This document shows, in pieces, positions 10,433 to 46,713 of a stretch of 64,000 nt of DNA. Origin of the DNA: an uncultured Alphaproteobacteria bacterium (GTDB lineage: Bacteria; Pseudomonadota; Alphaproteobacteria; Rs-D84); NCBI GenBank assembly GCA_905234465.1, contig CAJOHU010000001.1:31708-95707 (forward strand), given 5' to 3'. The notes beneath the pieces are model-generated. The model did no database searches and was not told the origin of the DNA. It was given only the letters and a program-made list of their open reading frames with translations. Position 1 is the first letter of the stretch. Each line of letters starts with the position of its first letter. A program made the position numbers and the translations under genes.

Positions 10433-10445
10433 TATTGGATAATGC

Positions 10446-11435: not shown

Positions 11436-11437
11436 TC

Positions 11438-11818
11438 ATGAAAAAACATACATTTAATTTTTCGGTTGCCTATGCCGACACCGATGCGGGTGGGATAATG
11501 TATCATGGGCGATATATTGAAATTGCAGAACGTGCGCGTATGAATTGGTTGGGGCATAATGCACGACCCGTCGCAGGTGATATCGGTTTGGTTATTCGCG
11601 ATTTAAGTATCCGCTATATAAAGCCTTTATTTTTGGCGGATGAATTCATTGTAGAAACGGTTGTGACGGCGGTTGGTGCGGCGTCTGTGTCGGTTGAACA
11701 AAAATTCGTGAAAAACGGTGAAATATGTGCTATACTTACCGGGACGGCGGCGTATTTGAATGCGACGGGACGTCCAACACGGATGCCAGATATTCTGGTT
11801 TCTGCGCTTAGGAATTAA
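11438..11818 (+). CDS. ybgC: Tol-Pal-associated acyl-CoA thioesterase (4HBT fold)
   Basis: The motif YADTDAGGIMYHGRYIEIAERAR is typical of YbgC. It lies immediately upstream of tolQRA. Confidence 0.8.
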   Translation: MKKHTFNFSVAYADTDAGGIMYHGRYIEIAERARMNWLGHNARPVAGDIGLVIRDLSIRYIKPLFLADEFIVETVVTAVGAASVSVEQKFVKNGEICAILTGTAAYLNATGRPTRMPDILVSALRN

Positions 11819-11836
11819 AGGAAAAAAGGAATAGAA

Positions 11837-12277
11837 ATGAATGCATTTTCGTTTTGGAAGTTGTTTACAGGCGATATTGTGACGGCGGTTGCGTCCATTG
11901 TCTTGGTGGTGTTCAGTGTGATGTCTTGGGCGGTGATTGTGGAAAAGATACGCCTGTTTCATGGAATTAAACATAAAAAACCAAGTGGAACCCCAGACGA
12001 AGCGATTCGACCATTTGATAAAAATTTGTGGTTTTTGGCGATGGTGGCGTATGTTTCGCCGTTTATTGGTCTGTTTGGTACGGTTTGGGGGGTGATGGAT
12101 TCTTTTGCGGCGATTGGTGCGAATCAATCGGTCAGCATTGGTGTTGTTGCACCCGGTTTGGCGATTGCGTTGGGAACGACGGCGTTGGGGTTAATAGTTG
12201 CGATACCTGCGGCGATTGCACACCAAGTGTTTTCTAAACGCACGGATGAATTATATGATAATCTTGGGGGAAAATAA
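11837..12277 (+). CDS. tolQ: MotA/TolQ/ExbB-family proton channel (short, 3 TM)
   Basis: Three hydrophobic helices. A conserved TM2/TM3 region (GLFGTVWGVM, PGLAIALGTTALGLIVAIP). Context is ybgC-tolQ-tolR-tolA. Confidence 0.75.
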   Translation: MNAFSFWKLFTGDIVTAVASIVLVVFSVMSWAVIVEKIRLFHGIKHKKPSGTPDEAIRPFDKNLWFLAMVAYVSPFIGLFGTVWGVMDSFAAIGANQSVSIGVVAPGLAIALGTTALGLIVAIPAAIAHQVFSKRTDELYDNLGGK

Positions 12278-12278
12278 C

Positions 12279-12680
12279 ATGACACGTGTGCGTCGCAGAA
12301 TTTCAGATGTGACATTATCATTGACGCCAATGATAGATGTTATGACGGTATTGTTGGCGGTGTTCATGGTGACTACGCCAATGATGACGAACGGCATAGA
12401 TTTAGACTTGCCGAATGCGGGCACTACTGTTTTGACGGGGACCGACCATGCCATGCAAATAAGTGTGGATTCGGCGGGGCGTTATTTTATTGGTACGGAT
12501 AATTTGCCGTTGGATGCGGTGATTAAGCGCGCGGTTGCGATGCGGGGCGAGAATTCTAAATTGGCGATTGTTATAAATGGTGACCGGCGTGCAGATTATG
12601 GTGCGGTTATGGCGGTTATGGGAAAATTAAAGTCTGCGGGTTTTGAACGCGTTGGGTTGCGGACGAAATTGGATAAATAA
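12279..12680 (+). CDS. tolR: TolR/ExbD biopolymer transport protein
   Basis: The motif LTPMIDVMTVLLAVFMV is the ExbD/TolR TM signature with its conserved Asp. The ATG at 12279 comes 1 nt after the tolQ stop. Confidence 0.75.
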   Translation: MTRVRRRISDVTLSLTPMIDVMTVLLAVFMVTTPMMTNGIDLDLPNAGTTVLTGTDHAMQISVDSAGRYFIGTDNLPLDAVIKRAVAMRGENSKLAIVINGDRRADYGAVMAVMGKLKSAGFERVGLRTKLDK

Positions 12681-12682
12681 GA

Positions 12683-13435
12683 ATGGCAAAGATAGACCAT
12701 TTCTTTTCAGAAAATATTGGAATTTCCGTTTTGGGACATTTGGTATTGTTGGCGGCGGTGGTGCTGTTGGCGGATGTCGTTTTTGTTGGGTTTAACCGGT
12801 TTGTCGCGCCCGACAGGATTCAGATTACAATGATAGATTTGGATAATGTGCGTGTGTCTGGGGATGAAACGGTGCTTTATAATACAAATACAGACAATAA
12901 CAAAAAAGACGATTTGAAAAAGCCGGATAACAAGAAAATACAGGAACAAAATGCCGCGCCGAAACAGAGTGAAGAAATGAAATCTACCACCCTTGTCCCG
13001 GATACAGAAAAAAAACAAGATAAAAATAAAAAGAGTGACAGTCCGGCACCCGATGAAACAGTTGCCCCGAAAACCAGTACGATTGTGCGGGTGAATCGGA
13101 ATGTTGTATCGTTGGACAGGACGCTTACTGTATCGGTGGTTGATGCGTTGCGTGTGGCGATGACGCGTTGTTGGACGATTGATACGGCGCATCCTGGAAT
13201 TGATGGAATTCGGGCGGTTGCGCATTTGACAATGCGGCAAAATGGAACGGTATCTGATGTTTGGTTTGAATCGGCGACGCGTGCGGAAACCGATGCGGCG
13301 TTTGCCTATGTTTTGGAAACGGTTCGTTCCGCGATAAATGTGTGCCAGCCTTTACGTATGTTGCCGATTGCGGAATATGACAAATGGAAAAAGATTCAGT
13401 TAACATTTTATCCCACCACCGGCGCAGTAATGTGA
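12683..13435 (+). CDS. tolA: TolA-like protein (N-terminal TM anchor, Lys/Glu/Asp-rich linker, C-terminal TolA/TonB-type domain)
   Basis: Anchor ISVLGHLVLLAAVVLLADVVFV. A charged linker of about 90 aa. The position after tolR is conserved. No tolB/pal follows, which is unusual. Confidence 0.55.
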   Translation: MAKIDHFFSENIGISVLGHLVLLAAVVLLADVVFVGFNRFVAPDRIQITMIDLDNVRVSGDETVLYNTNTDNNKKDDLKKPDNKKIQEQNAAPKQSEEMKSTTLVPDTEKKQDKNKKSDSPAPDETVAPKTSTIVRVNRNVVSLDRTLTVSVVDALRVAMTRCWTIDTAHPGIDGIRAVAHLTMRQNGTVSDVWFESATRAETDAAFAYVLETVRSAINVCQPLRMLPIAEYDKWKKIQLTFYPTTGAVM

Positions 13436-13812: not shown

Positions 13813-14294
13813 TTGCCGTGGCAGTTGGAATATAAGCCGGATTCTGTTCCGCCCAAATCCCGTGTCGTTCCGGCGCGTGCGACACCAAACATTGGGTGGC
13901 AAGCATAATTAATCTGCAAATGGCGTTGCCGCCAAGTGTCAAGCCCTTTACCCGTTTCCGATTCGGAACAAATCATTGGAAACCTATTTAAGGTTGCTGC
14001 GCACAGAGATTGCCCGTTTCACTCAAACACGCGTGGTGTTTGCTTCGTCACTGTTGCTCTAATCGTCAGATTGCTCTGCCCGGTAATTAGCCGGTGTGCT
14101 GTTCCGGTGCAGTCCGGACTTTCCTCCGCCATGGTGATGACGGCTATGCTTTTTCCAACTGCCGCGGGACAGGTTAGAATAAGGTGGCAATAAAATCAAC
14201 AAAATTTTTATATAAATTTTTTATATTTTTGTCTTGCACGGGTGTGGATAAATTGCTAACGTTTTTATCAAAGGGGAAGGAAGAAAACAGAAAA

Positions 14295-17200
14295 ATGTCC
14301 ATATTTCGCAGGTTTTTTGGCGTTTTAACAATCGCATTTTGTTGCGTGTTTGCCGTACATTCCGCATGGGCAAATTTTTACATCACCACAACAACCACAG
14401 GCTATTATCAACATGCTCCTACTGTATGCATAAAAGCCAAGGGTTCGTTTTTTGTTGATTGGGGTGACGGGGGAACTGATTCCTGTCATAATTCAATAGT
14501 AAAAAGTTGCTGTAAAACTCATACTTATTCAGATAATAGCATATCCCACACTGTAGAGATAAGTGGGCAACCAACAGAGTATGCTGACTATACCAATGCC
14601 ACTTTTGATGCTCAGCCAACAATAGCATTTTGCAATTGGGGCAATCCTTATCTTTTCCATTGTGCGGCGCCCTGGGTGGCGGGCATATCTGGGTCTATTG
14701 GTGAAATTTTTCCGACACTTGGTAATGGAAATAACCCAGGGCAACAACCATCGTTTAGCCATACATTTGGCAGTATGCCCAATTTAACCGGCACTATACC
14801 CGCTAATTTATTTAATGGGGTTCATGGAACGCCTGTGCGGTGGATGTTTAGCAATTTGTTTTTTGCCGATACGGGTTTGACCGGCAGTATACCGTCAAAT
14901 TTATTCAGTGGTATTACGGGTACGGCTGTCGGGGCATTTGCACATGCGTTTGGGAGAACCACCCATTTGAATTGCCATGTCCCGGCGGGTTTGTTTCATA
15001 ATATAGTGGGCAATGTTCCTCAGAGTATGTTTTATGAGACTTTTGCGGGTAGTCCGGAAAATGGACCGGATGATGGTTTTTGTACAGAAAGTGGCACATA
15101 TGGTTGGATAGCGCCCGATGCGTTTTCTATATCTCGCTTGTATGGCACGCCTTTTTCTAATTATCAAATGTATCGGATGTTTTATAAGTCTGGTCTGGCA
15201 CAAAGTTGTCCAAGTGGTTATACCCAATGGGTGACGGGGTTTGAAGACGATTGGGATGGTCGCAAGGCGTGTGTCCCGTCAAGTATGACACTTACGACCA
15301 ACTGCGGGGAAGGAACCGGTAACGGCACAAGTATGAATGTTTCATATAATGATAATGTAATTGTGGGATCCCCTTCGTCTTGGGGTTGTACTGCACCGGC
15401 GGGCGAAACATTCAGTCATTGGGCGGTGTCAAACAGTACAGACACATATAACGCAGGTCAGCAGTTTAATTGGCACTATGTACAAAACAAGGTGTTTACA
15501 GCCGTATGGGAAGGACATTATTATAATTTCGCGTTAAATCATAAAGACGGATCAAACAATGTGAATACGGTTTATGAAAAATACAATACCGGTTGGGCGA
15601 CCAGTGCAAATGCGTCTTCATGGAATTGGAATATGATTCTTCCACAAGATACTGTGCGCGATGGATACACTTTGCGTGGTTATTATGATTATGATTTTGG
15701 GGATGTAAGCAGCAATGATACTGTAAGTGAAACAGAAGCGTATTATCATATGAAAATTAAGTATGATAGTAGCAGCAGTGGGTGGAAACTGCCTGCGCCA
15801 ACTCAGGCGCCGGGTGCCACATGGTATGCGGCATGGGCGCGTAATTGTGCACCGGTTGCGCCCGCAACATGCAGTTTACAAATTGCTCCGCACACTGGTT
15901 CTGTGACGTACGTCACCACGTGTCCGGAAGGATATAATAAAGTCAATGGTACTTCATACAACCCGAGTTGTACGCCGGTGGGTGTGACAATTACTTTAAA
16001 TAATAATGATGCCACATCGGCGGGAACGACCAGTTTGACAACAGCGTACGGTGTCGGGGTTTATCTTGATGGTACTTTGATGACCACAAGTGGTCCTTCA
16101 ATTACCAAACCGCAAAAGCAATTTACCGTCACTTATTATGCCCAGGGCGGAACGATGACCGGTGGCAATTCAAGTATCACGCAAACCGCAACATCCACAT
16201 TTGATGGGTATTATTATGCCGAGAACAATAATGCACCTGTCCAGGTCATTGATGATGATGGATATATAACAACCAATGGTGATACGATTGGTAAAGAGTA
16301 TACCACCAATGCAACATGGACGGCGCAATGGTCGGGGGGGGCGGTCACTTTGCCGAATGCCCAACGTCCGGGGTGGACGCTGGTGGGGTGGAAAACATCG
16401 GGAAATTGTGGTGGGTCATTGGCAGGTACCCCGGGGCAGCACTATACCCCGGATGGAAATATAATGTTGTACGCATGTTGGACAAATGTGCCATATTATA
16501 TAATCACATTGGCCGATGGGTCTTATAATGATATTATACAAAACGGCATGATTACCGGGACAAATGGTGGCTGTACCAGGGCCGGGTTGCAATATGGTCA
16601 AGGTTGGCTGAATATATGCGATGCCCCATTGCGTGGTGCGCTGTCGCTAAGCCAGATTCCAAAACGACCAAACCATGTGTTTAATGGATACTGGGCGGAA
16701 TTGGCGGGTGGCGCGTCGGGCGTAGATAGCCAGGTCGTTACCAAAGACGGCGAATTTTGGGAAACAAGCGAGGTTTTAAATGGATTTGTGTCCGATTCAA
16801 CGATTACCGCATATTGGCAACCAAAATATCTTATAACGCTTAATCCCAATGGCGGCAGTGGTGGTGACACATCTATATATGAAGGATATGGGGTTGGTTG
16901 GTCAAAAACACAAAATGGTGATTATACTGATACTATAACAGTTACTAAACCACAAAGAACGGGCTATACATTTAGTGGATATTATGATGATCCGAATTTT
17001 GGTATAAAATACATTCCTCGCAGTGGTGTGGTATCATTAAGTCCTGCAACATTTTCAACACCAAAGACACTGTATGCACATTGGTCCCCGCGGAGATATA
17101 CCATCACATTAAATGATAATGGTGGCAGTGGCGGTCAGGTCGGTGACGCGTCGTCACACTGTACCACAGCCGACTTGGTGTACGGTACCCGTTGGGAAAA

Positions 17201-20200
17201 TGGATGCGATTCGGGCGGTGCTGTATATGACCGCGGTGCCAGTGGCAGTGGCGAGGGTGACAAAACAGAAACGGGCGAATCGGGTGAAGGCGGGTCTGGC
17301 GAAAAAGCCGCATCAAGTTCTTCAAATACCGGGTCCAGCAGTTTAAGTTTGTATCCTCCTCTGCCTACAAGAGATGGTTATATTTTCAATGGGTATTGGA
17401 ATACGTCCGCATCTTCTGGTGGAACCATGATTGTTACTCCACAGGGGGCTTTCCGCGAGGTAGATGCTGCCTTGACCTTTACATCCCAGGATGCGACTAT
17501 ATATGCGCGTTGGGAATCGGGAACACCAAGTAATACGATATATACGATAACATTAGACCCCAATAACAATGGGGCGGATGGAAATCGTCCACCAAAGATA
17601 TACCAAAAGGGAACTTCTTTCTGGGCGGATTCAAGCGCAACTGACTACCCGATTACTGGTTCTGTATTTGACCCGATTGCCGACGGTGGTGCGGGTATAA
17701 CTCGCCCAACCCCACCAAGCGGTAAAGCGTTCAGTGGATACTGGGATGACAGAATGACGGAACGGTTTACCGATGCAGATGGAAATATAGTGGCAACTGC
17801 TTATTTCACAGGCGCTGCAACGGTTAATGCCCACTGGGGGGATGCCGCCACGACAACGGTTACATTGGATGCGAATAATGGTACCCCATGTGCAACAAGA
17901 ACGGTGACCGCCACCCAGGGGCACGATATGCCGACATTGACGTGTGGTCCAACACCGCCCCCCGGGTATGACTTTACCGGGTATTATAAGACAGAATATG
18001 GGGGGTGGCAGTATTATGATGAACAACCGGCGTCGGTGCATGTTTGGGATCAAACAACATCAACCGCAACAATTTATGCAGGATATGAGCCGGCGGTTCG
18101 TGATGTGTCGTATCTGTGCAACAGCGGTGGGATTGGTTCGGCTAATATGGTGGATCAGGCGACGTATGGTTCCGAATATACTATCAAAGATTTTAGTACT
18201 GTTGGGTGCAACGCAATCATCGGTAAAAAGTTCATAGGGTGGACTATATCAGGATCCAATACTTTCGTGGAACCGGGCAAATCATACCAAAATTGGCCAT
18301 ACTATACCGATTTAACTCTGGTCGCCAAATATTTGGACATATACACTGTGACTTTGCGGCACCCCGATGCGACAAATAGCCCTATGCCGCGTGTCGCATA
18401 TGTTATACCATACACATCTGATTCAGCTGGGTATGAAGGTTGGTATTCAGAGTCAACCGCCGATACACCTCTTGTGGCCATGATTACGGCACCGCAACGT
18501 CCGCTGTATGATTTTACCGGGTATTTCTATTTGCCAGATGGTGATACACAATCCGACGAGATACAGATTGTGCGCGAAAACGGGTATTTTTTTGATAATC
18601 AAGAAACATTAGAGTTAATTACATCAGATGGAGTTGCAGACGCAGCTTGGAAGCCTGTATCGCCAGAATTGACTATCACGACTACATCGTTACCGGCAAA
18701 TACAACATTCAGATTCTATATCGGTGCCACGGGTGAATTTGTTATAACGTGGGGCGATGGACAGACACAAACCGTTTCTTCACCGGGTATCGTTTCGCAC
18801 ACCTATTCCAGTGCAGGTGCGCGTACCATCGATATTGTCGGAGATGCTACAAGTTATACAGATGCGTACACAACAGGAACTATATATAATACCGGCCGAG
18901 TGGCAGAATCTAGCCAGTGGTCAAACAATGCTGTGCGCCCGATCCAAATTAATTTCCCGGCGGCGATACGGTTTGGATGTGAAGCCGAGGATACATCGTG
19001 TGCCCTAACCCCACAATTAATTAGTGCTGTGCATGGATCTTTGGGTGATGTGTTTCCGACGCTTGGTACCGGAAACACGCAACAGCCGCGGTTTAGTCGG
19101 ACGTTCGCAGGCTGTACTAACTTGACCAATGTTCCTGAAGATTTGTTTGGAGGTGTGTATGGTGCGGCAATACCCGGAATGTTCTATGGTACATTTGAAG
19201 ATTCTGGGTTGGTATCTGTTGGACAGAATTTGTTCAGCGGTATAACATCGTTCGCACCGCACGCATTCCAAAGAACATTTATGGGATCTGATTTGTCTAC
19301 TGTGCCGGCGGGGTTGTTTAGTCATATTTCTGGCGCCCCAGCCGAGGCCATGTTTGCGTATACTTTTGCGAACACACCGTTGCGCAGCATACCAAGTGGT
19401 ATATTTAGTGGTGTCGTTGGTGCACCGGCGGTCGATATGTTCTGGGGAACATTTAGTGGGGTTCCTTTTGTATATGGAAATACTTTGCCGGCGTTGTTTA
19501 GTGGTATATCAGGTGCGCCCGCCAAAGGTATGTTTGATTCAACGTTTTATAATAGTTATAACCTAACTGGCACGATACCGGCTAATTTATTCGGCGGCAC
19601 CAATTTGTCGGGTGTGCCGGCAGAACGCATGTTCGCAAGTACATTCTATGGTTGTTATAATTTAAGTGGTTCTATCCCGGCAAATCTGTTCGGTGGCATG
19701 GGATTAACCGGTGCATCGGCGGTTGGAATGTTTGATACAACATTCTTTGCGTGTATCGGTCTAAGTGGTTATGTTCCAATGACACTGTTTGGTGGAATAT
19801 CTACATCTAATCCAGCAGCTGATATGATGAATCATGTGTTTCAGCATTCTGGGTTATTGCCAGTTTGTCCATGCGGAACACATGATTATACCACCGGTTT
19901 TGAATCTTATTGGGATGGCAAGGTTTCTTGCGAAGTCGGGTTAAAACCAAACGAACATTGGTACGGCGATATATGTGTAGAAGATTGTGCGGCGGGTATA
20001 ACGCAAATAAGAACAAGTACAGGGCTGTCTTTCCAAATATTAAAGACAAAACCAACAGAACATGCAATTCATATTAGTGCCCCTAGTGATGGTACGGTTT
20101 GCTATGTGCCATTGGAATCTGGGCTTGGAGGCACGGACAGTATGAATGTTGCATATAGTGGTACAACATATCATCTTGGAATTGTTTCTGATACTGCGCC

Positions 20201-20231
20201 TGCTAACTGGGATCCGTTGGCGTCATCATAA
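14295..20231 (+). CDS. giant secreted repeat protein (1979 aa). It has a signal peptide and N- and C-terminal blocks of about 30-aa LRR-like (BspA/DUF285-type) tandem repeats. Between them are at least 8 Listeria-Bacteroides-type repeat domains. There is also a Gly/Ser/Glu-rich acidic linker.
   Basis: The ORF-track frame begins at 14184, but the probable start is the ATG at 14295 (MSIFRRFFGVLTIAFCCVFAVHSAWA, with a GGAAGGAAG RBS). The LRR-like repeat consensus is MFxxTFxGCxNLTGSIPANLFGGxxGxPA, with about 4 copies N-terminal and about 9 C-terminal. The Listeria-Bacteroides repeats read YxITLNPNGGSGG...RTGYTFSGYYDD...TLYAHW. The duplicated module is FYITTTTTGYY..FFVDWGDGGTD / FRFYIGATGEFVITWGDGQTQ. 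Confidence 0.85.
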   Translation: MSIFRRFFGVLTIAFCCVFAVHSAWANFYITTTTTGYYQHAPTVCIKAKGSFFVDWGDGGTDSCHNSIVKSCCKTHTYSDNSISHTVEISGQPTEYADYTNATFDAQPTIAFCNWGNPYLFHCAAPWVAGISGSIGEIFPTLGNGNNPGQQPSFSHTFGSMPNLTGTIPANLFNGVHGTPVRWMFSNLFFADTGLTGSIPSNLFSGITGTAVGAFAHAFGRTTHLNCHVPAGLFHNIVGNVPQSMFYETFAGSPENGPDDGFCTESGTYGWIAPDAFSISRLYGTPFSNYQMYRMFYKSGLAQSCPSGYTQWVTGFEDDWDGRKACVPSSMTLTTNCGEGTGNGTSMNVSYNDNVIVGSPSSWGCTAPAGETFSHWAVSNSTDTYNAGQQFNWHYVQNKVFTAVWEGHYYNFALNHKDGSNNVNTVYEKYNTGWATSANASSWNWNMILPQDTVRDGYTLRGYYDYDFGDVSSNDTVSETEAYYHMKIKYDSSSSGWKLPAPTQAPGATWYAAWARNCAPVAPATCSLQIAPHTGSVTYVTTCPEGYNKVNGTSYNPSCTPVGVTITLNNNDATSAGTTSLTTAYGVGVYLDGTLMTTSGPSITKPQKQFTVTYYAQGGTMTGGNSSITQTATSTFDGYYYAENNNAPVQVIDDDGYITTNGDTIGKEYTTNATWTAQWSGGAVTLPNAQRPGWTLVGWKTSGNCGGSLAGTPGQHYTPDGNIMLYACWTNVPYYIITLADGSYNDIIQNGMITGTNGGCTRAGLQYGQGWLNICDAPLRGALSLSQIPKRPNHVFNGYWAELAGGASGVDSQVVTKDGEFWETSEVLNGFVSDSTITAYWQPKYLITLNPNGGSGGDTSIYEGYGVGWSKTQNGDYTDTITVTKPQRTGYTFSGYYDDPNFGIKYIPRSGVVSLSPATFSTPKTLYAHWSPRRYTITLNDNGGSGGQVGDASSHCTTADLVYGTRWENGCDSGGAVYDRGASGSGEGDKTETGESGEGGSGEKAASSSSNTGSSSLSLYPPLPTRDGYIFNGYWNTSASSGGTMIVTPQGAFREVDAALTFTSQDATIYARWESGTPSNTIYTITLDPNNNGADGNRPPKIYQKGTSFWADSSATDYPITGSVFDPIADGGAGITRPTPPSGKAFSGYWDDRMTERFTDADGNIVATAYFTGAATVNAHWGDAATTTVTLDANNGTPCATRTVTATQGHDMPTLTCGPTPPPGYDFTGYYKTEYGGWQYYDEQPASVHVWDQTTSTATIYAGYEPAVRDVSYLCNSGGIGSANMVDQATYGSEYTIKDFSTVGCNAIIGKKFIGWTISGSNTFVEPGKSYQNWPYYTDLTLVAKYLDIYTVTLRHPDATNSPMPRVAYVIPYTSDSAGYEGWYSESTADTPLVAMITAPQRPLYDFTGYFYLPDGDTQSDEIQIVRENGYFFDNQETLELITSDGVADAAWKPVSPELTITTTSLPANTTFRFYIGATGEFVITWGDGQTQTVSSPGIVSHTYSSAGARTIDIVGDATSYTDAYTTGTIYNTGRVAESSQWSNNAVRPIQINFPAAIRFGCEAEDTSCALTPQLISAVHGSLGDVFPTLGTGNTQQPRFSRTFAGCTNLTNVPEDLFGGVYGAAIPGMFYGTFEDSGLVSVGQNLFSGITSFAPHAFQRTFMGSDLSTVPAGLFSHISGAPAEAMFAYTFANTPLRSIPSGIFSGVVGAPAVDMFWGTFSGVPFVYGNTLPALFSGISGAPAKGMFDSTFYNSYNLTGTIPANLFGGTNLSGVPAERMFASTFYGCYNLSGSIPANLFGGMGLTGASAVGMFDTTFFACIGLSGYVPMTLFGGISTSNPAADMMNHVFQHSGLLPVCPCGTHDYTTGFESYWDGKVSCEVGLKPNEHWYGDICVEDCAAGITQIRTSTGLSFQILKTKPTEHAIHISAPSDGTVCYVPLESGLGGTDSMNVAYSGTTYHLGIVSDTAPANWDPLASS

Positions 20232-28505: not shown

Positions 28506-29000
28506 ATGAAAAAGTTTATTATGGCAATTATTTGTGCGTTTGTTGCGTCTCATGCGTTTGCGGTTTGTCCGGTGTGCACGGTGGCGGTTGGTGCAGGACT
28601 GGAAGGGGCGCGTTTGTTGGGCGTTGATGATGTAATAACCGGAATTTGGGCGGGTGGACTTACATTGTCGCTGTTTTTCTGGACGGCGGGATGGTTGCGT
28701 AAACATGGGGTAAAAAGTGTGTTTTGGCAATTGATTGTGCCGTTTGTGTTTTACTATGCATTGCTGGGTATGGTTTATTTGTTGCCTGATGTGTATTTCG
28801 GTGTCAACACTATATGGGGAATTGATAAGTTTTTATTGGGAATTATTGTCGGTTCGGTCTGTTTTTGGCTTGGGGCACGGTGGTATGTGTCCATTAAGCG
28901 CAGAAATGGCGGACATGCCCAATTTGCGTTTCAAAAAGTTGTTGTTCCAATTAGTTTTTTGTTAATCGCAACATTGGTATTCTGGTTGATTACTAAATAA
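28506..29000 (+). CDS. hypothetical integral membrane protein (signal peptide + CPVC motif + 4 TM)
   Basis: The ATG at 28506 has RBS aaggaagg. MKKFIMAIICAFVASHAFAVCPVC. Four hydrophobic helices. Confidence 0.55.
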   Translation: MKKFIMAIICAFVASHAFAVCPVCTVAVGAGLEGARLLGVDDVITGIWAGGLTLSLFFWTAGWLRKHGVKSVFWQLIVPFVFYYALLGMVYLLPDVYFGVNTIWGIDKFLLGIIVGSVCFWLGARWYVSIKRRNGGHAQFAFQKVVVPISFLLIATLVFWLITK

Positions 29001-29677: not shown

Positions 29678-32059
29678 TTGGTCAAAGGAAGGGTGTTTTT
29701 TGCCATTGCTTTTGCGTTTATTGTTGCGCCGTTGATTGGTGGCGGGGCGTTTTGTGCGACCCAACCGAATCCCCGCACAACCGATTCGAATGCTGTGCCT
29801 CGTCGGTCTGTTGGTGCGGTACAATCACGCAGTGTCACAACATTACCAACGCGAATTCGTGCCGTTACGCAACCTGGGGCGGGTCGCAGCGCAAAAACCA
29901 TAACAGCGGTGCGTACAGCAACCGTGACAGGTCCGCGTTCAGGAAGTACGCGCAGTGCAGTACCGTCTATGCGTGCGCGCAGTGCCAAGACGGGCGCAAC
30001 AAATGCCCGAACGGGTAAAAACATACTGGCGGGATTGTCGGGTGGCGCACGCAGCGCAATGGCGCGCGCAACCGCGGTGTTCAGTGATGTATCAAAAATT
30101 GGTTCGGGATATGCGGCGTGTCGGGAATCATATGCGACTTGTATGGATCAGATTTGTGCAAGTGCTAACGATTCATATCGCAGATGTGTTTGCAGTGACC
30201 GTTATACAAAATTCCGCAACATAGAAGATGCCTTAGATCAGGCGATGATTATGTTGGCGCAATTTCAGGATAATAATTTGAATGCTGTTGATAAAACCGC
30301 CGCCGAAGTTGATGCGATGTATTCCGCCACGGTTGGTGAAATGGCGATTAAAAGTGATACCAGTGCTGCCGCCAAAATGCTGGACGAAATCAGTAATTTG
30401 TTGTCCGGAAAATCAACATCATCGCCCTATTCTGGTTCTGCCAATTCTTTGGGAATTTTGGATTTAGATTTCTCTACCGATTTGGGCGACATATGGTCAA
30501 ATGATGTATCGTCTATATTTTCGTCTTCGGGGCAGGATATGTCTACACTGGAAGGTGTGGCGTTGTTTAATGCGGCACAGAATCAATGTGTGAAACTTAG
30601 CCAGGACGCATGTGAAAATGATGCGGCGTTTTCAATGTCACGCAGTTCTTATAATATTCTGATTAATCAAGATTGCAATCTGTATGAAACGAAATTGAAT
30701 ACAAACAGGGAAAAAGTGGCAAAGGCGATTCGTTTGGCGGAACAATACCTGCGTGAGGCGCGTTTGGAAGAATACCGTTCACATAATTCTGCAGATGTGA
30801 ATGAATGTATTGCCAAGGTTCGTGATGCGATTCTAAAAGATACCGCGTGCGGCGAAAATTATAAACGTTGTTTGGATCCAACAGGTGCATATATCAATGG
30901 CGTGACCGGTGCGGCAATTTACAGTCCACGTCTGTTCCAATTAGAAAAAACGATTTCATTGGAAGGGGTCACAACATCTGGGAATGTGAATACTGATATT
31001 TTGGGACAAAACAAGACATATGATAAGTTTTTAGAAAATTATCGCCAATATGTGGTTCGGGAATTAGATACGTGTCGGGATATTGCAGATTTTGTGTGGA
31101 GCGAATTCAAACGCAATGCGATTATTGAAATTGCCCAAGCACAAAGCGAGAAATTAGAAGAAGTAAAATCTTCGTGCGTTAATACCATAGCAGAATGTTA
31201 TGACACCCAAACAAACGCATTAAAAAATGTTGATAAAAATACGGCAACCACCGCAGGGGCATTGGGGCGGTATACTGCGCGTGACATGTGTGCGGAACAG
31301 GTGTCAGCATGTGCTACATTATATGGCAGTACCAAGAATAATGAATCGTGCAAATTTGATTCGCGTGGTCATTTGACATCTGATACCGATAAAGATTCGT
31401 GCGGATTAACATCGTTGTTGAACTATGTCAAGGCGGTTGATGATTTAAGTGTCGCACAAAAGTGTGAAGAGGCGATTGAAGAATATGTGACAAACCTGTG
31501 CACACCTGACAATTCTACGTATTCTTATCCATATAATTGCCGCAAATTAAGCAGGGATAATATACGTGATTCAATACAAAAGTTTGCAATAGATAATTGT
31601 TATGATCCCGGGACGGATACGGTTGCCGAGTACAGTGATTTGCCGGATAGGGTTCAAACGCGCATTACACTTTTATTAAATGATATTGATGAATCCATGA
31701 ATGCGACGTTGGCGGATGAATGCAGCGAATCGGGTGGTATGTGGTCAGAAAAAAGAGATTCTGATAATCAGGATAATTATTGGTTAGGTTTCTATAATAC
31801 GGTTTATGGCGGATACACCCCAGATAATGCCGATAGTGACAAAAAGTATGGAACCGAATGGGGATATTGTTACGCGAACAGTCCGCGGTTGGCATGTTTG
31901 GCATATGCCGACATGTGGGATGAAGACGAAGATGTCGCGGAATGGGATATGGCGACCCAGACATGTGTTTTATACGATGCTTGGTACAGACATAAATGTC
32001 AAGAACTGGGGTCGGGATATTATTTGGATGGTGTGTGTTATATATCATCTGATAATTAA
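29678..32059 (+). CDS. large secreted hypothetical protein. It has a signal peptide, an Arg/Thr/Ser-rich low-complexity region (RSxxT repeats), then a Cys-rich region of about 600 aa.
   Basis: Probable TTG start at 29678 (RBS gaagggag). The ORF-track frame opens at 29627. Signal peptide VFFAIAFAFIVAPLIGGGAFCA. About 35 Cys. No catalytic motif recognised. Confidence 0.65.
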   Translation: MVKGRVFFAIAFAFIVAPLIGGGAFCATQPNPRTTDSNAVPRRSVGAVQSRSVTTLPTRIRAVTQPGAGRSAKTITAVRTATVTGPRSGSTRSAVPSMRARSAKTGATNARTGKNILAGLSGGARSAMARATAVFSDVSKIGSGYAACRESYATCMDQICASANDSYRRCVCSDRYTKFRNIEDALDQAMIMLAQFQDNNLNAVDKTAAEVDAMYSATVGEMAIKSDTSAAAKMLDEISNLLSGKSTSSPYSGSANSLGILDLDFSTDLGDIWSNDVSSIFSSSGQDMSTLEGVALFNAAQNQCVKLSQDACENDAAFSMSRSSYNILINQDCNLYETKLNTNREKVAKAIRLAEQYLREARLEEYRSHNSADVNECIAKVRDAILKDTACGENYKRCLDPTGAYINGVTGAAIYSPRLFQLEKTISLEGVTTSGNVNTDILGQNKTYDKFLENYRQYVVRELDTCRDIADFVWSEFKRNAIIEIAQAQSEKLEEVKSSCVNTIAECYDTQTNALKNVDKNTATTAGALGRYTARDMCAEQVSACATLYGSTKNNESCKFDSRGHLTSDTDKDSCGLTSLLNYVKAVDDLSVAQKCEEAIEEYVTNLCTPDNSTYSYPYNCRKLSRDNIRDSIQKFAIDNCYDPGTDTVAEYSDLPDRVQTRITLLLNDIDESMNATLADECSESGGMWSEKRDSDNQDNYWLGFYNTVYGGYTPDNADSDKKYGTEWGYCYANSPRLACLAYADMWDEDEDVAEWDMATQTCVLYDAWYRHKCQELGSGYYLDGVCYISSDN

Positions 32060-32091: not shown

Positions 32092-32901
32092 ATGTTCAAA
32101 CAAATATTGGTATGTATAGTTGCTTTATCAGCAGGAATGACGGGGTCGTTTGGCGCGGCAAGTGTTCGTTCAATCGGAATACTTCCACATTCAGGTAGTG
32201 TTGGGGCGGTGACGCGCGCGGGAACTTTGCGGATGCAACCAACAACGGCTGTTGGTAAAAAATCTGTATCAACTGGTGCTACGCTTTCAGAAAACATATC
32301 TGGGGATAATACCACGCGTATGTCAAGTATTTCTGGAATCCCGGGTGTTGGGTCAAAACCGAAACTTTCTTCTTCTACATCGGCGGCTACACTTGCGGAT
32401 TTGAAAAAACAAGTTGCAGATTTGGCGAACGTGGTTTCTGATATGTTAAGTGCGGGCGTTGATGAAGAGGCGGTTCGTGAGATCATAGATTCTGAATTGG
32501 CGGCGAAAAATTTTGCAACCAATGAAGAACTTAACCAAAAAGCCGACAAAGAAGATGTAATATCCAGTGATGTCACGTTCACCGAAGAAAATGGGTATAT
32601 AGTTTTGACCAGTGGAAAGACCAAAGCGAATGTGGTCGCACTTTCAGACATTCAAGGGGGGCAAGGCACGCCGGGTGCGAATGCGTGTGAACCCAAATAT
32701 TCTTCTAAAACAAATGCTGATGGTGATACTGAGGTCACAATAACATGTGCTGACAATGAATCACAAGTTTTGGGGCAATATACTGTTGCCAAGGGCGCAG
32801 ATGGCGTGAATCCATGTCCGAAAGGCTTGGAATTGGTTGAGGACACAGAATACGAAGATTCGGTCAATTCAAAAAAATATGACTTGGTCTGCAATGAATA
32901 A
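32092..32901 (+). CDS. secreted paralog B (269 aa). It has a signal peptide and a middle module DLKKQVADLANVVSDML shared with paralog D. Its C-terminal module PCPKGLELVEDTEYEDSVNSKKYDLVCNE is shared with paralog C.
   Basis: Signal peptide MFKQILVCIVALSAGMTGSFGAA. Modules aligned by eye. Confidence 0.7.
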   Translation: MFKQILVCIVALSAGMTGSFGAASVRSIGILPHSGSVGAVTRAGTLRMQPTTAVGKKSVSTGATLSENISGDNTTRMSSISGIPGVGSKPKLSSSTSAATLADLKKQVADLANVVSDMLSAGVDEEAVREIIDSELAAKNFATNEELNQKADKEDVISSDVTFTEENGYIVLTSGKTKANVVALSDIQGGQGTPGANACEPKYSSKTNADGDTEVTITCADNESQVLGQYTVAKGADGVNPCPKGLELVEDTEYEDSVNSKKYDLVCNE

Positions 32902-32932
32902 AAAATAAACTTATAAAACATGGGGGAAAATA

Positions 32933-33979
32933 ATGAAAGAAAAAATGTTATATATGGGTATGTTCGCGGCGGTTGTGGCGTTGTTTGGTGCAAACGCATA
33001 TTCTAAAACACTGGGCAGTATAATTGTGCCCGCGCCAACAAATGGAAACGATGGTTTATCGGCATATCAAATATGGCTTAATAATGGAAACACGGGAACT
33101 GAGGCAGATTTTTTGGCTTCGTTAAAGGGTGAAGCTGGTACCAGTGTAAAGATAAAGGGTACCGTTTCAACCTGTGCCGCGTTAAACAGTCTTACTAATG
33201 TAAGTGCGGGGGATATTTATTTGGTTACGGGTGATAATAATATGGGTTATATTTATGACGGCACCTCGTTTCCAAATTGCCCGGGTAATGGTATTCAAAT
33301 TCAAGGACCGCAGGGACAGGCGTGTCTGACGACACTTACGACACAGGCGTGTGGTCCGGATCTTACTAAAAAATGTCCTGTGGCGACAAGGTCTGGCACA
33401 GTCTATACCAAAACAGATTGTAATGGCACGAATCCAACCGATGATGTCGTTTATAATGGTGATGATGGCGATGATATTTGTGATAATGTGGAAAATCCGG
33501 CGACATCGGTTAAAACATATACAAAGACATATACTGCACATACCGCCAGTTTGCCGGGATATGTGACGTTGACACAGACAATGTGCAACAACACTACAAA
33601 TACTACCAATTATCAAGATTCTTGTGTGCCGATTATTCCGCGCACAAATCAAAATATTTGCAGCGCCGGGACATATATGGAATGCACCGCCCAAAATGAT
33701 GGCACCGTGTATAATGTATGCAAACCCAAAGATACTGACGATGCCGACACAGTTTTCACGGCATTAAAAGATAAATTGTCAAAAAATGTGACATTTGCGA
33801 CAGAAACAGTGGACAATGTTGAATCTTTCGTATTAAAGGAAGGCAGTAATACGGTTGCGGTATTGGCGGCAAAGTCTGAATTAAAGGGTGAAACCCCTTG
33901 TCAGCAAGGGTTGAATTTAGTGGAAGATGATAATTATACAGGCAGTGGAAAGAAATATAATTTGGTATGTGATGATTAA
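32933..33979 (+). CDS. secreted paralog C (348 aa). Its N-terminal module (LGSIIVPAPTNGNDGLSAYQIWLNNGNTGTEADFLASLKGEAGT, plus a Cys-rich body) is shared with paralog D. Its C-terminal module is shared with B. It carries a short collagen-like GPQGQ.
   Basis: Signal peptide MKEKMLYMGMFAAVVALFGANAYS. The motif SAYQIWLxNGxxGTEADFLAxLKG. Confidence 0.7.
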   Translation: MKEKMLYMGMFAAVVALFGANAYSKTLGSIIVPAPTNGNDGLSAYQIWLNNGNTGTEADFLASLKGEAGTSVKIKGTVSTCAALNSLTNVSAGDIYLVTGDNNMGYIYDGTSFPNCPGNGIQIQGPQGQACLTTLTTQACGPDLTKKCPVATRSGTVYTKTDCNGTNPTDDVVYNGDDGDDICDNVENPATSVKTYTKTYTAHTASLPGYVTLTQTMCNNTTNTTNYQDSCVPIIPRTNQNICSAGTYMECTAQNDGTVYNVCKPKDTDDADTVFTALKDKLSKNVTFATETVDNVESFVLKEGSNTVAVLAAKSELKGETPCQQGLNLVEDDNYTGSGKKYNLVCDD

Positions 33980-33995
33980 AAAAAAGGTGGATGAA

Positions 33996-35003
33996 ATGAG
34001 TGGAAAAATCGTTTTTTTAGGGGCGTGTTCGGTGGCGGCTGTATGCACAGTTGTCGCGGGCGAATGTTTCGCCAGCAGAAATTTGGGCAGTATTATCATA
34101 CCCCCGGTGACAGACGGAACCGATGGTCAGGATGGTGCGTCGGCATATCAAATATGGCTTGCCAATGGGCACGAAGGAACCGAGGCGGACTTTTTGGCAT
34201 GGTTAAAAGGTGCTCCGGGCACACCGGCGTGTAATACAACTTTGACCAAAAGTGTGATAACCAATCCAGTGACCAGTAAAAAATCTGTGACTGTCACGGC
34301 AACAGATTGTAATAGTAACACATTGTGGACAGAAACGGTTGAAGACGGTGTAGATGGCAGCAATGGTGCGGCGGGTGTTGGGGTTTGTGATAATGTTGCA
34401 GATACAGCAACCGCCAACAAGAATACCGTTAGCATTTATACTGCGGGGACGGCAACCACCATTGGTTATATGACGCATACATATACCAAATGTAATGGAA
34501 ATACAGAAACAAGCATCGTGGAAGATTCTTGTGCCCAGGTCTTTGATAAACGCACCAGTGGCGCATGTAGTGGCGCATATATGGTTTGCAAAAATCAGCA
34601 GGCGGGTACGGAATACAATGTTTGCAAGCCGATAAGCGGGCAAGACATTAGTCCTTTTGGCAAAGCAATAAGCGATTTGGCAGACAGGGTCGCCGATAAA
34701 GCAGATACTTCTGTGTTGTCGGGTTATGTAAAGACAGATGGTACAAATTTACCAAACGGTATTATTACAACTAGCAATCTTGCCCAAAATAATATAGTGA
34801 CGACAAGCGCATTGAATTCTGCTGTAAATACTGCGGTCGGCGCCAAGGCTGTGTCGTTCGGTGGTCAAACGATGACAATGGACGATGTCGTTGAATTGTT
34901 AAGCAGCGCGGTTACATGTACAGAAAGCGATGTGGATTCTGTTAATACAATATCATGCAGTGGCAACGGTCTGAATTTATCACGATCAAAGGCTAGTAAT
35001 TAA
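33996..35003 (+). CDS. secreted paralog D (335 aa). Its N-terminal module is shared with C. It has a distinct C-terminus with the module ISDLADRVADKADTSVLSGYVKTDGTN.
   Basis: Probable ATG at 33996 (RBS aaaaggtgga). The ORF-track frame opens at 33927. Signal-like MSGKIVFLGACSVAAVCTVVAGECFA. Confidence 0.65.
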   Translation: MSGKIVFLGACSVAAVCTVVAGECFASRNLGSIIIPPVTDGTDGQDGASAYQIWLANGHEGTEADFLAWLKGAPGTPACNTTLTKSVITNPVTSKKSVTVTATDCNSNTLWTETVEDGVDGSNGAAGVGVCDNVADTATANKNTVSIYTAGTATTIGYMTHTYTKCNGNTETSIVEDSCAQVFDKRTSGACSGAYMVCKNQQAGTEYNVCKPISGQDISPFGKAISDLADRVADKADTSVLSGYVKTDGTNLPNGIITTSNLAQNNIVTTSALNSAVNTAVGAKAVSFGGQTMTMDDVVELLSSAVTCTESDVDSVNTISCSGNGLNLSRSKASN

Positions 35004-35015
35004 TTTATAAAAAAT

Positions 35016-35040
35016 GCCGCCCGGTTGGGCGGTTTTTTTT
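35016..35040. terminator. bidirectional terminator
   Basis: CCGCCCggttGGGCGG followed by T8. It lies between convergent genes. Confidence 0.6.
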
Positions 35041-35052
35041 ATGAAGTTTATA

Positions 35053-35472
35053 TTATTCTGCGGTTCCAACCATGCTTTTCAACATGTTCAAAAACGCGGC
35101 GCGTTGGGCATCTGTTTCTAATTTCCAATACAAACGGATTAACTGCAGACTCTCTGTACGCAACAATGGGTCGTCAGCGTCAGGCTGATGTACACGCATA
35201 GAACGAGTTGTTCGCGTTTCGTCCGGCATATTTCCCGGCAAACCACTAAAGAAAAAAGATACGGGTGTTTGCATTGCGGTACCGATTTCAAACAATCGGG
35301 ATGCGGATATACGGTTGTCCGCGGTTTCGTACTTCTGGATTTGTTGAAATGTGACACCGCATATGTTTGCCAAATCTTTTAACGATAGTCCCAACATCGT
35401 GCGACGCAGTTGCATGCGTTTGCCAATATGTTGATCTATGATAGTTGGTGTATAGGTTTTGCCTGCCATAAT
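35053..35472 (-). CDS. XRE-family (HTH_3) transcriptional regulator with a C-terminal extension
   Basis: The motif IGKRMQLRRTMLGLSLKDLANICGVTFQQIQKYETADNRISASRLFEIGTAM is a classic lambda-repressor-like HTH. The start MAGKTY was chosen. Confidence 0.7.
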   Translation of the reverse strand: MMAGKTYTPTIIDQHIGKRMQLRRTMLGLSLKDLANICGVTFQQIQKYETADNRISASRLFEIGTAMQTPVSFFFSGLPGNMPDETRTTRSMRVHQPDADDPLLRTESLQLIRLYWKLETDAQRAAFLNMLKSMVGTAE

Positions 35473-43862: not shown

Positions 43863-44324
43863 ATGACAGAAGAAGAAGTAAGTATTATTCTTGCCGGCAT
43901 ATTAAAACATTGGAAAACATTAAGTCCCGCTGAACTTAAAAGTCTGTTAAAGATTCTTATTGTTCGTGGTGATTTGCCGATATGTCCGGCGTGCAAGCAA
44001 CCCATATTAACCATTCAAGACAATTCTTTTGATCATGTTATTCCTGAATCTAAGGGTGGACCAACCGAAGCCGGGAATCTGCAACCTATGCATAAATGGT
44101 GCAATGTGGAAAAAGATGATGAAATATACGAACAATATTTTTGCCATGTTGATCCGGAACTGTTGGCACAGATGATTAAACAAGGCAAAGCCAAAGGTTC
44201 ACATGTGGCACGCAAATCTAAACAAAGATATGATAATGAACCCAAGGGACGTCGCAATCATGTTCGTATAAAGGGCGGTTGCGATATGACATCTTTTAAC
44301 AACAGCAATGGTCGTCACAGATAA
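43863..44324 (+). CDS. free-standing HNH endonuclease-domain protein
   Basis: CPACKQ...FDHVIPESKGGPTEAGNLQPMHKWCN has a C-x2-C, then H, N and H in HNH spacing. 153 aa. It lies 60 bp upstream of tRNA-Gly. Confidence 0.7.
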   Translation: MTEEEVSIILAGILKHWKTLSPAELKSLLKILIVRGDLPICPACKQPILTIQDNSFDHVIPESKGGPTEAGNLQPMHKWCNVEKDDEIYEQYFCHVDPELLAQMIKQGKAKGSHVARKSKQRYDNEPKGRRNHVRIKGGCDMTSFNNSNGRHR

Positions 44325-44384: not shown

Positions 44385-44458
44385 GCGGGCGTGGTATAAT
44401 GGCAGCACGAAAGCTTCCCAAGCTTTAGACGAGGGTTCGATTCCCTTCGCCCGCACCA
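44385..44458 (+). tRNA. tRNA-Gly (anticodon CCC)
   Basis: GCGGGCG...anticodon loop TTCCCAA...GAGGG-TTCGATT-CCCTT-CGCCCGC-A-CCA. Near-identical in acceptor, anticodon and T arms to the canonical bacterial tRNA-Gly(CCC). Confidence 0.85.
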
Positions 44459-45732: not shown

Positions 45733-46713
45733 ATGAAACCATATATATTTATTGCGTTGCTTGTGGGACTGACCGCGTGTAATAATGGTGATACGGTGCA
45801 CCAACATGACCCCATTGACAAAAAAATTTCGGACAGCAATCGTATTGTGACACATATGGCAACAAAAGTTATGGTCTCGCAAGAAAATCGTTCGGATGAC
45901 CGCGAGTATGTTAAATACAAACTGGACAATGTGAACCTTAGCAGTCTTATAACACCGGGCGAAACCAGTAATCTGAAATTCACAGTATCCCCAGATGGAG
46001 AAATTATTGGTATCCAGTTTGAAACAGATTCTAACAGTATCCCAGAAGCATGGAAAAGCGAGATGACACGCCAAACCGGAACAAACAGATTTGTTAGTGA
46101 ATCTGATGAAAATTTGGGCGCCGCAACGGTGACATATAACAGTTATGCAAAACATCTGAATTTGCATTATGCAGATTTTGGTGTCGCAGAATTCAAATTT
46201 ACCGAGGATGGCGTGGAAAAAACTGCAAATGCGCCGTTTGCTGGCGGATACGCGGTCAAGAAAATAGAACAACAAAGTATGTCAAATGAACCGATTGTGT
46301 TTAATGGAACGGCGCGTGGCAATGTAGAATATGCCAATAGCACAGAACACGCGTTCTTGCCGGTACAGGACCGAAGTGCACAAATGACATTTGATAATGG
46401 AATTGAAACATTAAGTGCTAATTTTAAAAATTGGCATAAAATGGACATAGAAAAAGATGGCGATACAATCAATGTTTCTTTTGCCAGCCCAATAAACCCA
46501 GATGATGATATAGATACGCGTTTCCAAATGAATGGTACAAATGACACAGTACGGTTTATGGAAACGGGATATTATGGTTCGGACAATCGTCCATCTGAAG
46601 CGGTCGCACTGTTTGAATACCAGGAAAAAATAGACCCGTCACAAGACGCGCGCGACAACAACCGAACGGTTTATGTCGGGTTTGGGGGTAAAGATGCAGG
46701 TATTTCTGAATAA
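45733..46713 (+). CDS. lipoprotein (lipobox LVGLTAC) of unknown function
   Basis: MKPYIFIALLVGLTAC. 326 aa. A beta-rich composition suggests a surface-lipoprotein fold. Confidence 0.6.
   Translation: MKPYIFIALLVGLTACNNGDTVHQHDPIDKKISDSNRIVTHMATKVMVSQENRSDDREYVKYKLDNVNLSSLITPGETSNLKFTVSPDGEIIGIQFETDSNSIPEAWKSEMTRQTGTNRFVSESDENLGAATVTYNSYAKHLNLHYADFGVAEFKFTEDGVEKTANAPFAGGYAVKKIEQQSMSNEPIVFNGTARGNVEYANSTEHAFLPVQDRSAQMTFDNGIETLSANFKNWHKMDIEKDGDTINVSFASPINPDDDIDTRFQMNGTNDTVRFMETGYYGSDNRPSEAVALFEYQEKIDPSQDARDNNRTVYVGFGGKDAGISE

Follow-up and report, generated by a model that had tools for sequence, protein, structure and literature searches.

Bacterial adhesive fibres built from phage-fibre modules are, as a concept, already known. 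Collagen-like surface proteins of bacteria (Pfam PF01391), such as BclA of the Bacillus exosporium and Scl of Streptococcus, are exported trimeric fibres whose number of G-X-Y triplets varies between strains. Bdellovibrio bacteriovorus carries mosaic adhesive trimer (MAT) fibres, which bear signal peptides and are chimeric trimers of tail-fibre-like build whose tips can be swapped (Caulton et al. 2024, PMC10769870). Here we describe three adjacent genes, B, C and D, in a 64-kb stretch (hereafter the window) of contig CAJOHU010000001.1 from an uncultured alphaproteobacterium of the lineage Rs-D84. The analysis supports the view that their products are exported, disulfide-stabilized and fibre-like, with a modular build that diversifies as modules are shuffled. 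We favor, at a probability of roughly 0.55, the fuller reading that B, C and D are Sec-exported, disulfide-stapled, modular and probably trimeric surface fibres of a lineage-restricted family.

The genomes closest to the window are rumen and gut metagenome-assembled genomes (MAGs) labelled Alphaproteobacteria or 'Candidatus Enterousia'. Bacteria of Rs-D84/'Candidatus Enterousia' are widespread in animal guts, and their genomes measure ~0.7 to 1.6 Mb, with most below 1 Mb; the lineage is without a tricarboxylic acid cycle, respiration and standard transporters, and dependence on a partner has been proposed (PMC12306168). Many membrane proteins of Rs-D84 are unexplained, and an attachment or uptake structure has not been identified (PMC12306168).

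Genes B, C and D and their modules

All three open reading frames (ORFs) lie on one strand, with intergenic gaps of 31 nt between B and C and 16 nt between C and D.

32092-32901, plus strand: gene B, 269 aa (ORF with Shine-Dalgarno sequence; independent call on the source scaffold; module map)
32933-33979, plus strand: gene C, 348 aa (ORF, independent gene call, module map)
33996-35003, plus strand: gene D, 335 aa (ORF, independent gene call, module map)

An independent gene call on the identical ENA metagenome scaffold returned identical proteins of 269, 348 and 335 aa, and Shine-Dalgarno-like sequences were found 6 to 10 nt 5' of each start (aaggaaagg for B, gggggaaaa for C, and aaggtgga for D). 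Each protein begins with a Sec-type signal peptide, in which a lysine-containing n-region is followed by a hydrophobic core and the cleavage site is AxA-like. The mature chains hold 4 (B), 14 (C) and 10 (D) cysteines, all even counts, and the number is also even in every defined module; together with the signal peptides, this leads us to expect oxidative folding outside the cytoplasm. Threonine, serine and asparagine make up 25 to 30% of the composition of the three proteins.

Behind its signal peptide, C is composed, in order, of an N-terminal strand, the SAY motif, the IKG module, CysR1, the CORE domain, a linker and Ct1, and D of an N-terminal strand, SAY, CysR2, CORE, a linker and Ct2. The order in B is signal peptide, a basic S/T-rich region (residues 21 to 100) that is probably disordered, a coiled-coil linker (97 to 150), the beta unit Ct1b (149 to 200), a two-Cys unit (197 to 240) and a C-terminal disulfide loop (238 to 269). 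These modules map to the window as follows.

32803-32898, plus strand: C-terminal loop of B, PC-x20-YDLVC (BLASTP homology to the C-terminus of C)
33059-33130, plus strand: SAY motif of C, SAYQIWLNNGNTGTEADFLASLKG (regular-expression match)
33137-33313, plus strand: IKG module of C, residues 69-127, SVKIKGTV..GDIYLV..GYIYDG..IQGPQ (tblastn against phages, phrog_15437)
33320-33466, plus strand: CysR1 unit of C, residues 130-178, four Cys (module map, unit-variant alignment)
33473-33730, plus strand: CORE domain of C, residues 181-266, six invariant Cys (invariant alignment columns)
33770-33976, plus strand: Ct1 module of C, residues 280-348, ending in a hypervariable disulfide-bounded PC-x22-C loop (module map)
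34140-34211, plus strand: SAY motif of D, SAYQIWLANGHEGTEADFLAWLKG (regular-expression match)
34221-34349, plus strand: CysR2 unit of D, residues 76-118, two Cys (module map, unit-variant alignment)
34383-34631, plus strand: CORE domain of D, residues 130-212 (46% identity to the CORE of C)
34704-35000, plus strand: Ct2 module of D, residues 237-335, YVKTDGTNLP..TSNLAQNNIVTT..TCTESDVDSVNTISCSG (module map)

An earlier note on this DNA, made from the sequence, had read the three genes as mosaic paralogues. BLASTP recovered two of the shared segments as it had described them, namely the Cys-rich body of C and D (179 aa, 36% identity, E 3e-24, with the YNVCKP end in both) and the last ~30 aa of B and C (B 238-269 against C 319-348, 53% identity over 32 aa, E 7e-7). 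The claim that C and D share roughly their first 250 aa stood only in part: their 76 N-terminal residues are 51% identical (E 3e-18), but the similarity is not continuous. Instead, two shared blocks flank a swapped middle, which consists of IKG (69 to 127) and CysR1 (130 to 178) in C and of CysR2 (76 to 118) in D. The 'DL(A/K)..VAD(L/K)A' module that had been proposed to link B and D did not hold up (25% identity, E 0.035) and resembles a generic coiled-coil linker; a different match, between B 170-240 and D 53-123 (E 2e-4), pairs the two-Cys unit of B with CysR2. Ct2 of D is common to the relatives P0023, P0025 and P0070 and is found in neither B nor C. The longest DNA repeat among the three genes, between the SAY copies of C and D, spans 95 nt at only 77% identity; module exchange is therefore old, and recent gene conversion among B, C and D was ruled out. 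No further paralogues of B, C or D were found within the window.

Shaft modules shared with phages and the wider family

The SAYQIWL...LKG motif that had drawn attention to these genes exists in both C and D, and the short collagen-like G-X-Y stretches said to follow it were confirmed as GEAGTS, GPQGQA and GAPGTP, the longest runs in B, C and D being 2 to 4 triplets. The earlier note had associated the motif with tail-fibre and collagen-like proteins, and this association was borne out by tblastn against phages, by PHROG families and by database matches in which the motif is flanked by Collagen repeats. Of 112 database matches to C, ~90 were found only via the 24-aa SAYQIWLxxGNxGTEADFLxSLKG motif, and in those proteins it is usually present 2 to 4 times, interspersed with Pfam Collagen repeats. 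A tblastn search with residues 37 to 128 of C returned 332 phage records, most of them annotated as tail fibre. Matches to PHROG tail-fibre families cover C 39-131, in the case of phrog_15437, and D 38-77, with E values of 1e-13 to 1e-7. For comparison of the shaft repeat we used the gp033 tail fibre of Escherichia phage muut (YP_009985830.1; L010 2683-4644), which has several copies of SAY followed by LKLLGTL..GDAWIV..MYAWDG and then G-X-Y.

Together, SAY and IKG make up the repeat that forms the shaft in annotated phage tail fibres, with IKG as its second half; C holds one full unit and D the SAY half only. No Pfam family covers this repeat significantly, and PDB sequence searches with C alone, with the family profile A1 and with the phage-type SAY-IKG unit returned no relative, so that a common tail-fibre shaft module, present in hundreds of phage fibres, is without a solved structure detectable by sequence. 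No relevant paper came up when the full text of the literature was searched for the motif strings. The cysteine pair C81/C116 in the IKG module of C is nearly invariant across the family and absent from the copies in phage muut gp033; the bacterial module has gained this pair. When residues 73 to 335 of D were compared by tblastn with 50,697 phage records, no match was found. Only the shaft modules are common to phages; the Cys-rich units, the core and the C-termini are without relatives among phages, in Pfam or in PDB. The locus shows shaft modules of phage tail fibres in a second use, within Sec-exported, disulfide-stabilized bacterial proteins.

Homologue searches with B returned only 6 proteins. 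A profile of the CORE domain, run against 1.84 billion representative proteins, retrieved only 43 cluster representatives; a simple heuristic finds a signal peptide in 33 of these, and the remaining ones resemble gene fragments. About 20 full-length relatives are built of the same modules in differing numbers and orders. Their common plan comprises a signal peptide, an [IL]G-x-[IF]-x-[VI]-P strand, SAY or G-X-Y triplets, an optional IKG and 1 to 3 Cys-stapled units, followed by the six-Cys CORE, an Ala/Gln-rich linker and one of at least three C-termini, which are Ct1 (a PC-x20-22-C loop; B, C), Ct2 (D) and a coiled coil of the alanine-zipper type with CSTCAAPKADN at its end. The architectures that we observed include SAY-IKG-CysR1-CORE-Ct1, IKG-CysR3x2-CORE-Ct1 and SAY-CysR1x3-CORE followed by the alanine-zipper tail, and one relative has seven matched CORE stretches in 1578 aa. 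An IGxFxxP-type N-terminal strand is present in most full-length members.

Six CORE columns are invariant among 21 proteins (C183, C218, C231, C243, C251 and C263, in the numbering of C). The Cys-stapled unit is ~40 aa long and occurs in four types in the family; five variants, CysR1 to CysR4 and the copy in B, align on a template of xC-x-[PT]-x-[FLY]-[TS], a hairpin, a second cysteine and [VI]-x-[DN]-G-x-D-G. CysR1 of C is one variant of this unit, ending in DGxDG. In alignment A2, the Ct1 residues G319, C323, Y342 and C346 are invariant, and there is no conservation from 324 to 341. By sequence, the family can be defined by the signal peptide, the [IL]GxxxxP strand and the six-Cys CORE, and C and D have all three features. 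B is without CORE and is tied to the family only via Ct1/Ct1b, its two-Cys unit and its position in the locus.

Pfam and NCBIfam gave no meaningful match for B, C, D or the neighbouring proteins A, P191 and TM (see below), and matches to Gp23, S25, lone7 and Mbov_0395 were dropped, as all were below the curated cut-offs. Pfam likewise found no domain, and no YadA-type anchor, in ten long CORE-containing proteins. Two orthologues do pass, each with a recognized trimer motif: L002_B, from the B position, matches Pfam Collagen (28.7 bits; cut-off 27.2), and P0009 matches Pfam Alanine_zipper (26.1 bits; cut-off 23.1). Database members of the family are all unnamed or labelled "hypothetical protein". 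The family, its CORE, the Cys-stapled units and the fixed chromosomal slot in the host lineage are undescribed, and CORE is without a relative in Pfam, PHROG or PDB.

An AlphaFold2 monomer model of C, with a predicted local distance difference test (pLDDT) score of 69 and a predicted template modelling (pTM) score of 0.28, has the form of beta-rich beads on a string. SAY is modelled as two short helices (44 to 50 and 57 to 63) and the other modules as beta elements. In a Foldseek search of a viral library, the best matches of this model were tail-fibre proteins, with E values of 2e-5 to 1e-3 and low TM-scores (template modelling scores), as is expected for extended monomers; against PDB, Foldseek returned nothing better than E 0.1.

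A variable slot in a conserved locus

The window is housekeeping DNA, with secA, dnaE, rsmH, iPGM, tadA, dnaK, pfk, ruvB, tolQ/tolR, ribosomal protein genes, rpoD and the RNase P RNA; the presence of tolQ and tolR indicates a diderm envelope. The earlier note was correct that no phage structural genes are nearby. Neither a phage gene nor a dedicated secretion-system gene was found anywhere in the window, and no phage structural genes were found in the syntenic loci examined. Relatives were located by a genome scan with an 11-sequence alignment, and on each contig the locus was read with ±10 kb around it.

Six other species-level MAGs keep the order dnaE-rsmH-TM-P191-A-B-C-D-XRE(-)-iPGM. Across these six loci, identity to the window is 91 to 92% for DnaE, 85% for iPGM, 87 to 88% for P191, 73 to 77% for RsmH and 63 to 66% for A. 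The orthologues of B, C and D in the same six loci compare with the window as follows.

B orthologues: 33-56% identity, 269-524 aa
C orthologues: 32-37% identity, 348-423 aa
D orthologues: 30-44% identity, 335-698 aa

In a seventh genome, the gene in the C position encodes 1578 aa. A more distant relative (L012, positions 10001-13000, on a 933-kb contig) keeps TM-P191-A, but its slot between A and XRE is empty and B to D are absent at the site; in another genome (L013, 4061-7645), A is followed in the slot by an unrelated 388-aa Cys-rich secreted protein. As the slot is empty or otherwise filled in these relatives, B to D are accessory occupants of a variable slot in a conserved locus.

The ratio of nonsynonymous to synonymous substitution rates (dN/dS), calculated gene-wide against the closest strain (C 95% identical) and thus from one sequence pair with no site-wise resolution, was 0.36 for B, 0.17 for C, 0.36 for D and 0.14 for A, with seven flanking genes at 0.04 to 0.24. 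Within B, 6 of the 21 substitutions relative to this strain are in the last 27 residues, and C differs from its counterpart by two G-P-Q triplets. The earlier note had proposed module exchange under diversifying selection: the exchange is real, and the family as a whole shows it more clearly than the window does, whereas diversifying selection is not established at dN/dS values of 0.17 to 0.36.

The genes and signals that surround B to D are the following.

28509-29000, plus strand: TM, membrane protein of 163 aa; its first helix is signal-like and directly followed by a conserved CxxC, and there are four more hydrophobic helices
29032-29607, plus strand: P191, 191 aa, no signal peptide, ending in NCCIE
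29678-32059, plus strand: gene A, 793 aa, exported, 28 mature-chain Cys, mostly helical (AlphaFold2)
35016-35033, no strand assigned: GC-rich hairpin with T-runs on both strands, a probable bidirectional terminator
35053-35469, minus strand: XRE-family helix-turn-helix regulator, convergent on D and sharing its terminator

The N-terminal ~125 aa of A are basic, rich in S/T/R and predicted as disordered, with long helices after them. At least 992 unnamed homologues of A, at 48 to 97% identity, were found, and Foldseek of its model against PDB gave nothing better than E 2.5. A might belong to the same machine as B to D. As an obligatory base for fibres A is a weakened candidate, given that L012 has it without B to D and that in L013 the protein downstream of it is an unrelated one. 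P191 is conserved more strongly than RsmH in the six species-level genomes (87 to 88% against 73 to 77%), and it has no relative in Pfam, NCBIfam, PHROG or PDB; its C-terminal CCIE might conceivably be CaaX-like. TM has no match to a known family; given its three or four Cys-rich, exported neighbours, it might conceivably have a thiol-disulfide role, for instance a DsbB/VKOR-like one. The XRE regulator is 78 to 87% identical in syntenic loci by BLAST, is present in L012 too, and may control the locus. The hairpin at 35016-35033 probably serves as the common end of the A-B-C-D transcription unit and of the XRE gene that converges on it.

Elsewhere in the window we noted several features that stand apart from this locus. 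A giant ORF of 2015 aa (14184-20231, plus strand), whose sole Pfam match is one Listeria-Bacteroides (Flg_new) repeat, may encode another surface protein. Directly 5' of it on the opposite strand is the RNase P RNA, bacterial class A (13817-14162, minus strand; 188 bits). A stand-alone HNH endonuclease gene (43863-44324, plus strand) lies directly 5' of tRNA-Gly(CCC) (44385-44458, plus strand). Four further ORFs of 300 to 640 aa (3168-4847, minus; 8719-9624, minus; 45733-46713, plus; 57457-59379, plus) have no Pfam match or only a sub-threshold one (Bestrophin-like; 28.1 bits, cut-off 32).

Alternative readings and comparison with known systems

In the reading of B to D as exported surface fibres, each chain consists of a signal peptide, a short conserved [IL]G-x-[IF]-x-[VI]-P strand and then small beta modules with short collagen-like G-X-Y linkers between them; these modules are phage-type SAY/IKG shaft units, ~40-aa Cys-stapled units and the six-Cys CORE, with the variable C-terminal module last. 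The chains would trimerize in the manner of the tail-fibre and collagen-like proteins with which they share modules, and the fibres would stand out from the envelope, the conserved N-terminus being proximal to it and the variable C-terminus distal, and could contact a partner cell, a host surface or a glycan. Diversification would proceed as whole modules are gained, lost, duplicated or recombined and as the G-X-Y number changes. Trimer, surface exposure, polarity and binding are deduced here from the shared modules, the architecture and the proposed lifestyle of the host.

Several observations weigh against this reading. Neither a route across the outer membrane nor an anchor was identified for B to D, and the proteins could therefore remain periplasmic. 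At 2 to 4 triplets, the G-X-Y runs of B, C and D are too short for an unaided collagen helix, and Pfam Collagen gives the three proteins no hit at E <= 1. The model of C is a monomer with a pTM of only 0.28, and no domain of known ligand-binding activity was found in B to D. Although elevated, dN/dS is below 1 for all three genes, and the substitutions in C and D cluster in signal peptides and linkers, not at the C-terminal tip. Finally, because L012 is without B to D at the site, they are either dispensable in that lineage or encoded elsewhere.

The main alternative, which we regard as possible but clearly less probable than surface fibres, is that B to D are structural components of the envelope, periplasmic or outer-membrane struts comparable to Braun lipoprotein or a surface layer, which would stabilize the envelope of a diderm with a reduced genome. 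Such a role is in keeping with their setting beside rsmH in the core genome and with the occurrence of tolQ and tolR in the window, as it is with the high conservation of the neighbouring exported A and TM and with the fact that D-position orthologues end in an alanine zipper matching Pfam Alanine_zipper, the major outer-membrane lipoprotein family. Proteins of this type are, however, usually conserved, whereas B to D are 30 to 56% identical between species against 73 to 92% for their flanks, range from 269 to 1578 aa and are absent at the site in one relative; moreover, no lipobox is conserved across the family, and the D protein of the window itself is without the alanine zipper.

It is rather unlikely that the three proteins act as soluble secreted factors, that is, as toxins or bacteriocins, or as decoys to which phages or immune molecules of the host bind. 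Signal peptides without a recognizable anchor, the fast evolution of B to D and the unrelated Cys-rich secreted protein that follows A in L013 would all fit. However, Pfam, NCBIfam and PHROGs reveal no enzymatic or toxin domain, and the repetitive shaft-like build, together with the N-terminal strand of most full-length members, suggests a common base.

We consider it improbable that B to D are domesticated phage tail fibres arming a tailocin, a gene transfer agent or a contractile injection system encoded elsewhere, in spite of the SAY and IKG modules that they have in common with phage tail fibres and the tail-fibre matches in the viral Foldseek library. Sec signal peptides and 4 to 14 paired cysteines are unexpected for a particle assembled in the cytoplasm, nothing beyond the shaft modules matches phage, no phage structural gene was found in the window or in the syntenic loci examined, and genomes of ~0.9 Mb leave scant room for such a cluster. 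The earlier note had suggested a domesticated phage part or the cargo of a secretion or injection system, and the Sec-type signal peptides, the even cysteine numbers and the restriction of phage sharing to the shaft count against both. Chance or low-complexity matches between unrelated ORFs, for which the coiled-coil match of B and D (E 0.035) and the abundance of T, S and N (25 to 30%) might be cited, are refuted by the BLASTP scores (E 3e-24 and 3e-18 for C/D, 7e-7 for B/C), by cysteine positions that are invariant across 21 proteins and by a gene order conserved in seven genomes.

Beyond the reading of B to D as surface fibres, we tentatively raise a more specific one, which we hold to be a good deal less probable: that they are the exchangeable partner-recognition fibres of an undescribed attachment apparatus of Rs-D84/'Candidatus Enterousia', in the slot after a TM-P191-A core. 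If this is true, small-genome gut alphaproteobacteria dock onto other cells by means of phage-fibre-derived, disulfide-stapled trimers, and the strategy of the Bdellovibrio MAT fibres has been invented independently. The locus offers testable candidates for the partner interface, in the form of an exported, fibre-like family that diversifies rapidly and has a fixed chromosomal site.

Of the systems with which B to D can be compared, trimeric autotransporter adhesins are set apart by their C-terminal YadA-type anchor, for which B, C and D have no Pfam hit. Bacterial collagen-like surface proteins are a closer parallel in their export, their trimeric fibres and a G-X-Y number that differs between strains, the trimer of B to D being a predicted one, and many of the database proteins with the SAY motif are of this type. 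Unlike them, B to D have only 2 to 4 triplets per run, which is below the Pfam Collagen threshold (only the orthologue L002_B passes), and they have no TNF/C1q-like head and no LPXTG anchor.

The shaft repeats of phages (muut gp033; PHROG 15437, 13286 and 3904) are like C in combining a 24-aa SAY helix hairpin, an xKGxV..GDxY.V..xxYxWDG beta module and G-X-Y triplets, and the phage unit is ~52% identical to that of C over 76 aa. Phage fibres differ from B to D in that they have no signal peptide and no IKG cysteine pair, repeat the unit several times and are encoded among virion genes. In C the unit occurs once and in D as SAY only, fused in both to Cys-rich domains that are absent from phages.

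The closest analogue is the MAT fibres of Bdellovibrio bacteriovorus, to which B to D are analogous without being members, since the ~130-aa N-terminal domain and S74 or the known tip folds are absent. In MATs, a ~130-aa domain, beta-rich and conserved, follows the signal peptide, where C and D have only ~15 residues before SAY and B has a low-complexity stretch of 80 aa. Intertwined beta-prisms or beta-helices form the shafts of MATs, and 13 of the 21 members have an S74 chaperone-protease at the C-terminus (PMC10769870), which B to D do not have; neither sequence searches nor Foldseek against PDB, which includes MAT tip structures, gave a match to any entry. The B-D family is also shorter (mostly 269 to 700 aa), is Cys-rich and has collagen-like linkers. 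What the two have in common is that both are encoded by chromosomal bacterial genes with signal peptides, and that both resemble phage tail fibres in build, the N-terminal end being conserved, the shaft modular and the C-terminal tips swappable. The MAT host, moreover, lives at the expense of other cells and may in this respect be likened to Rs-D84, for which dependence on a partner has been proposed.

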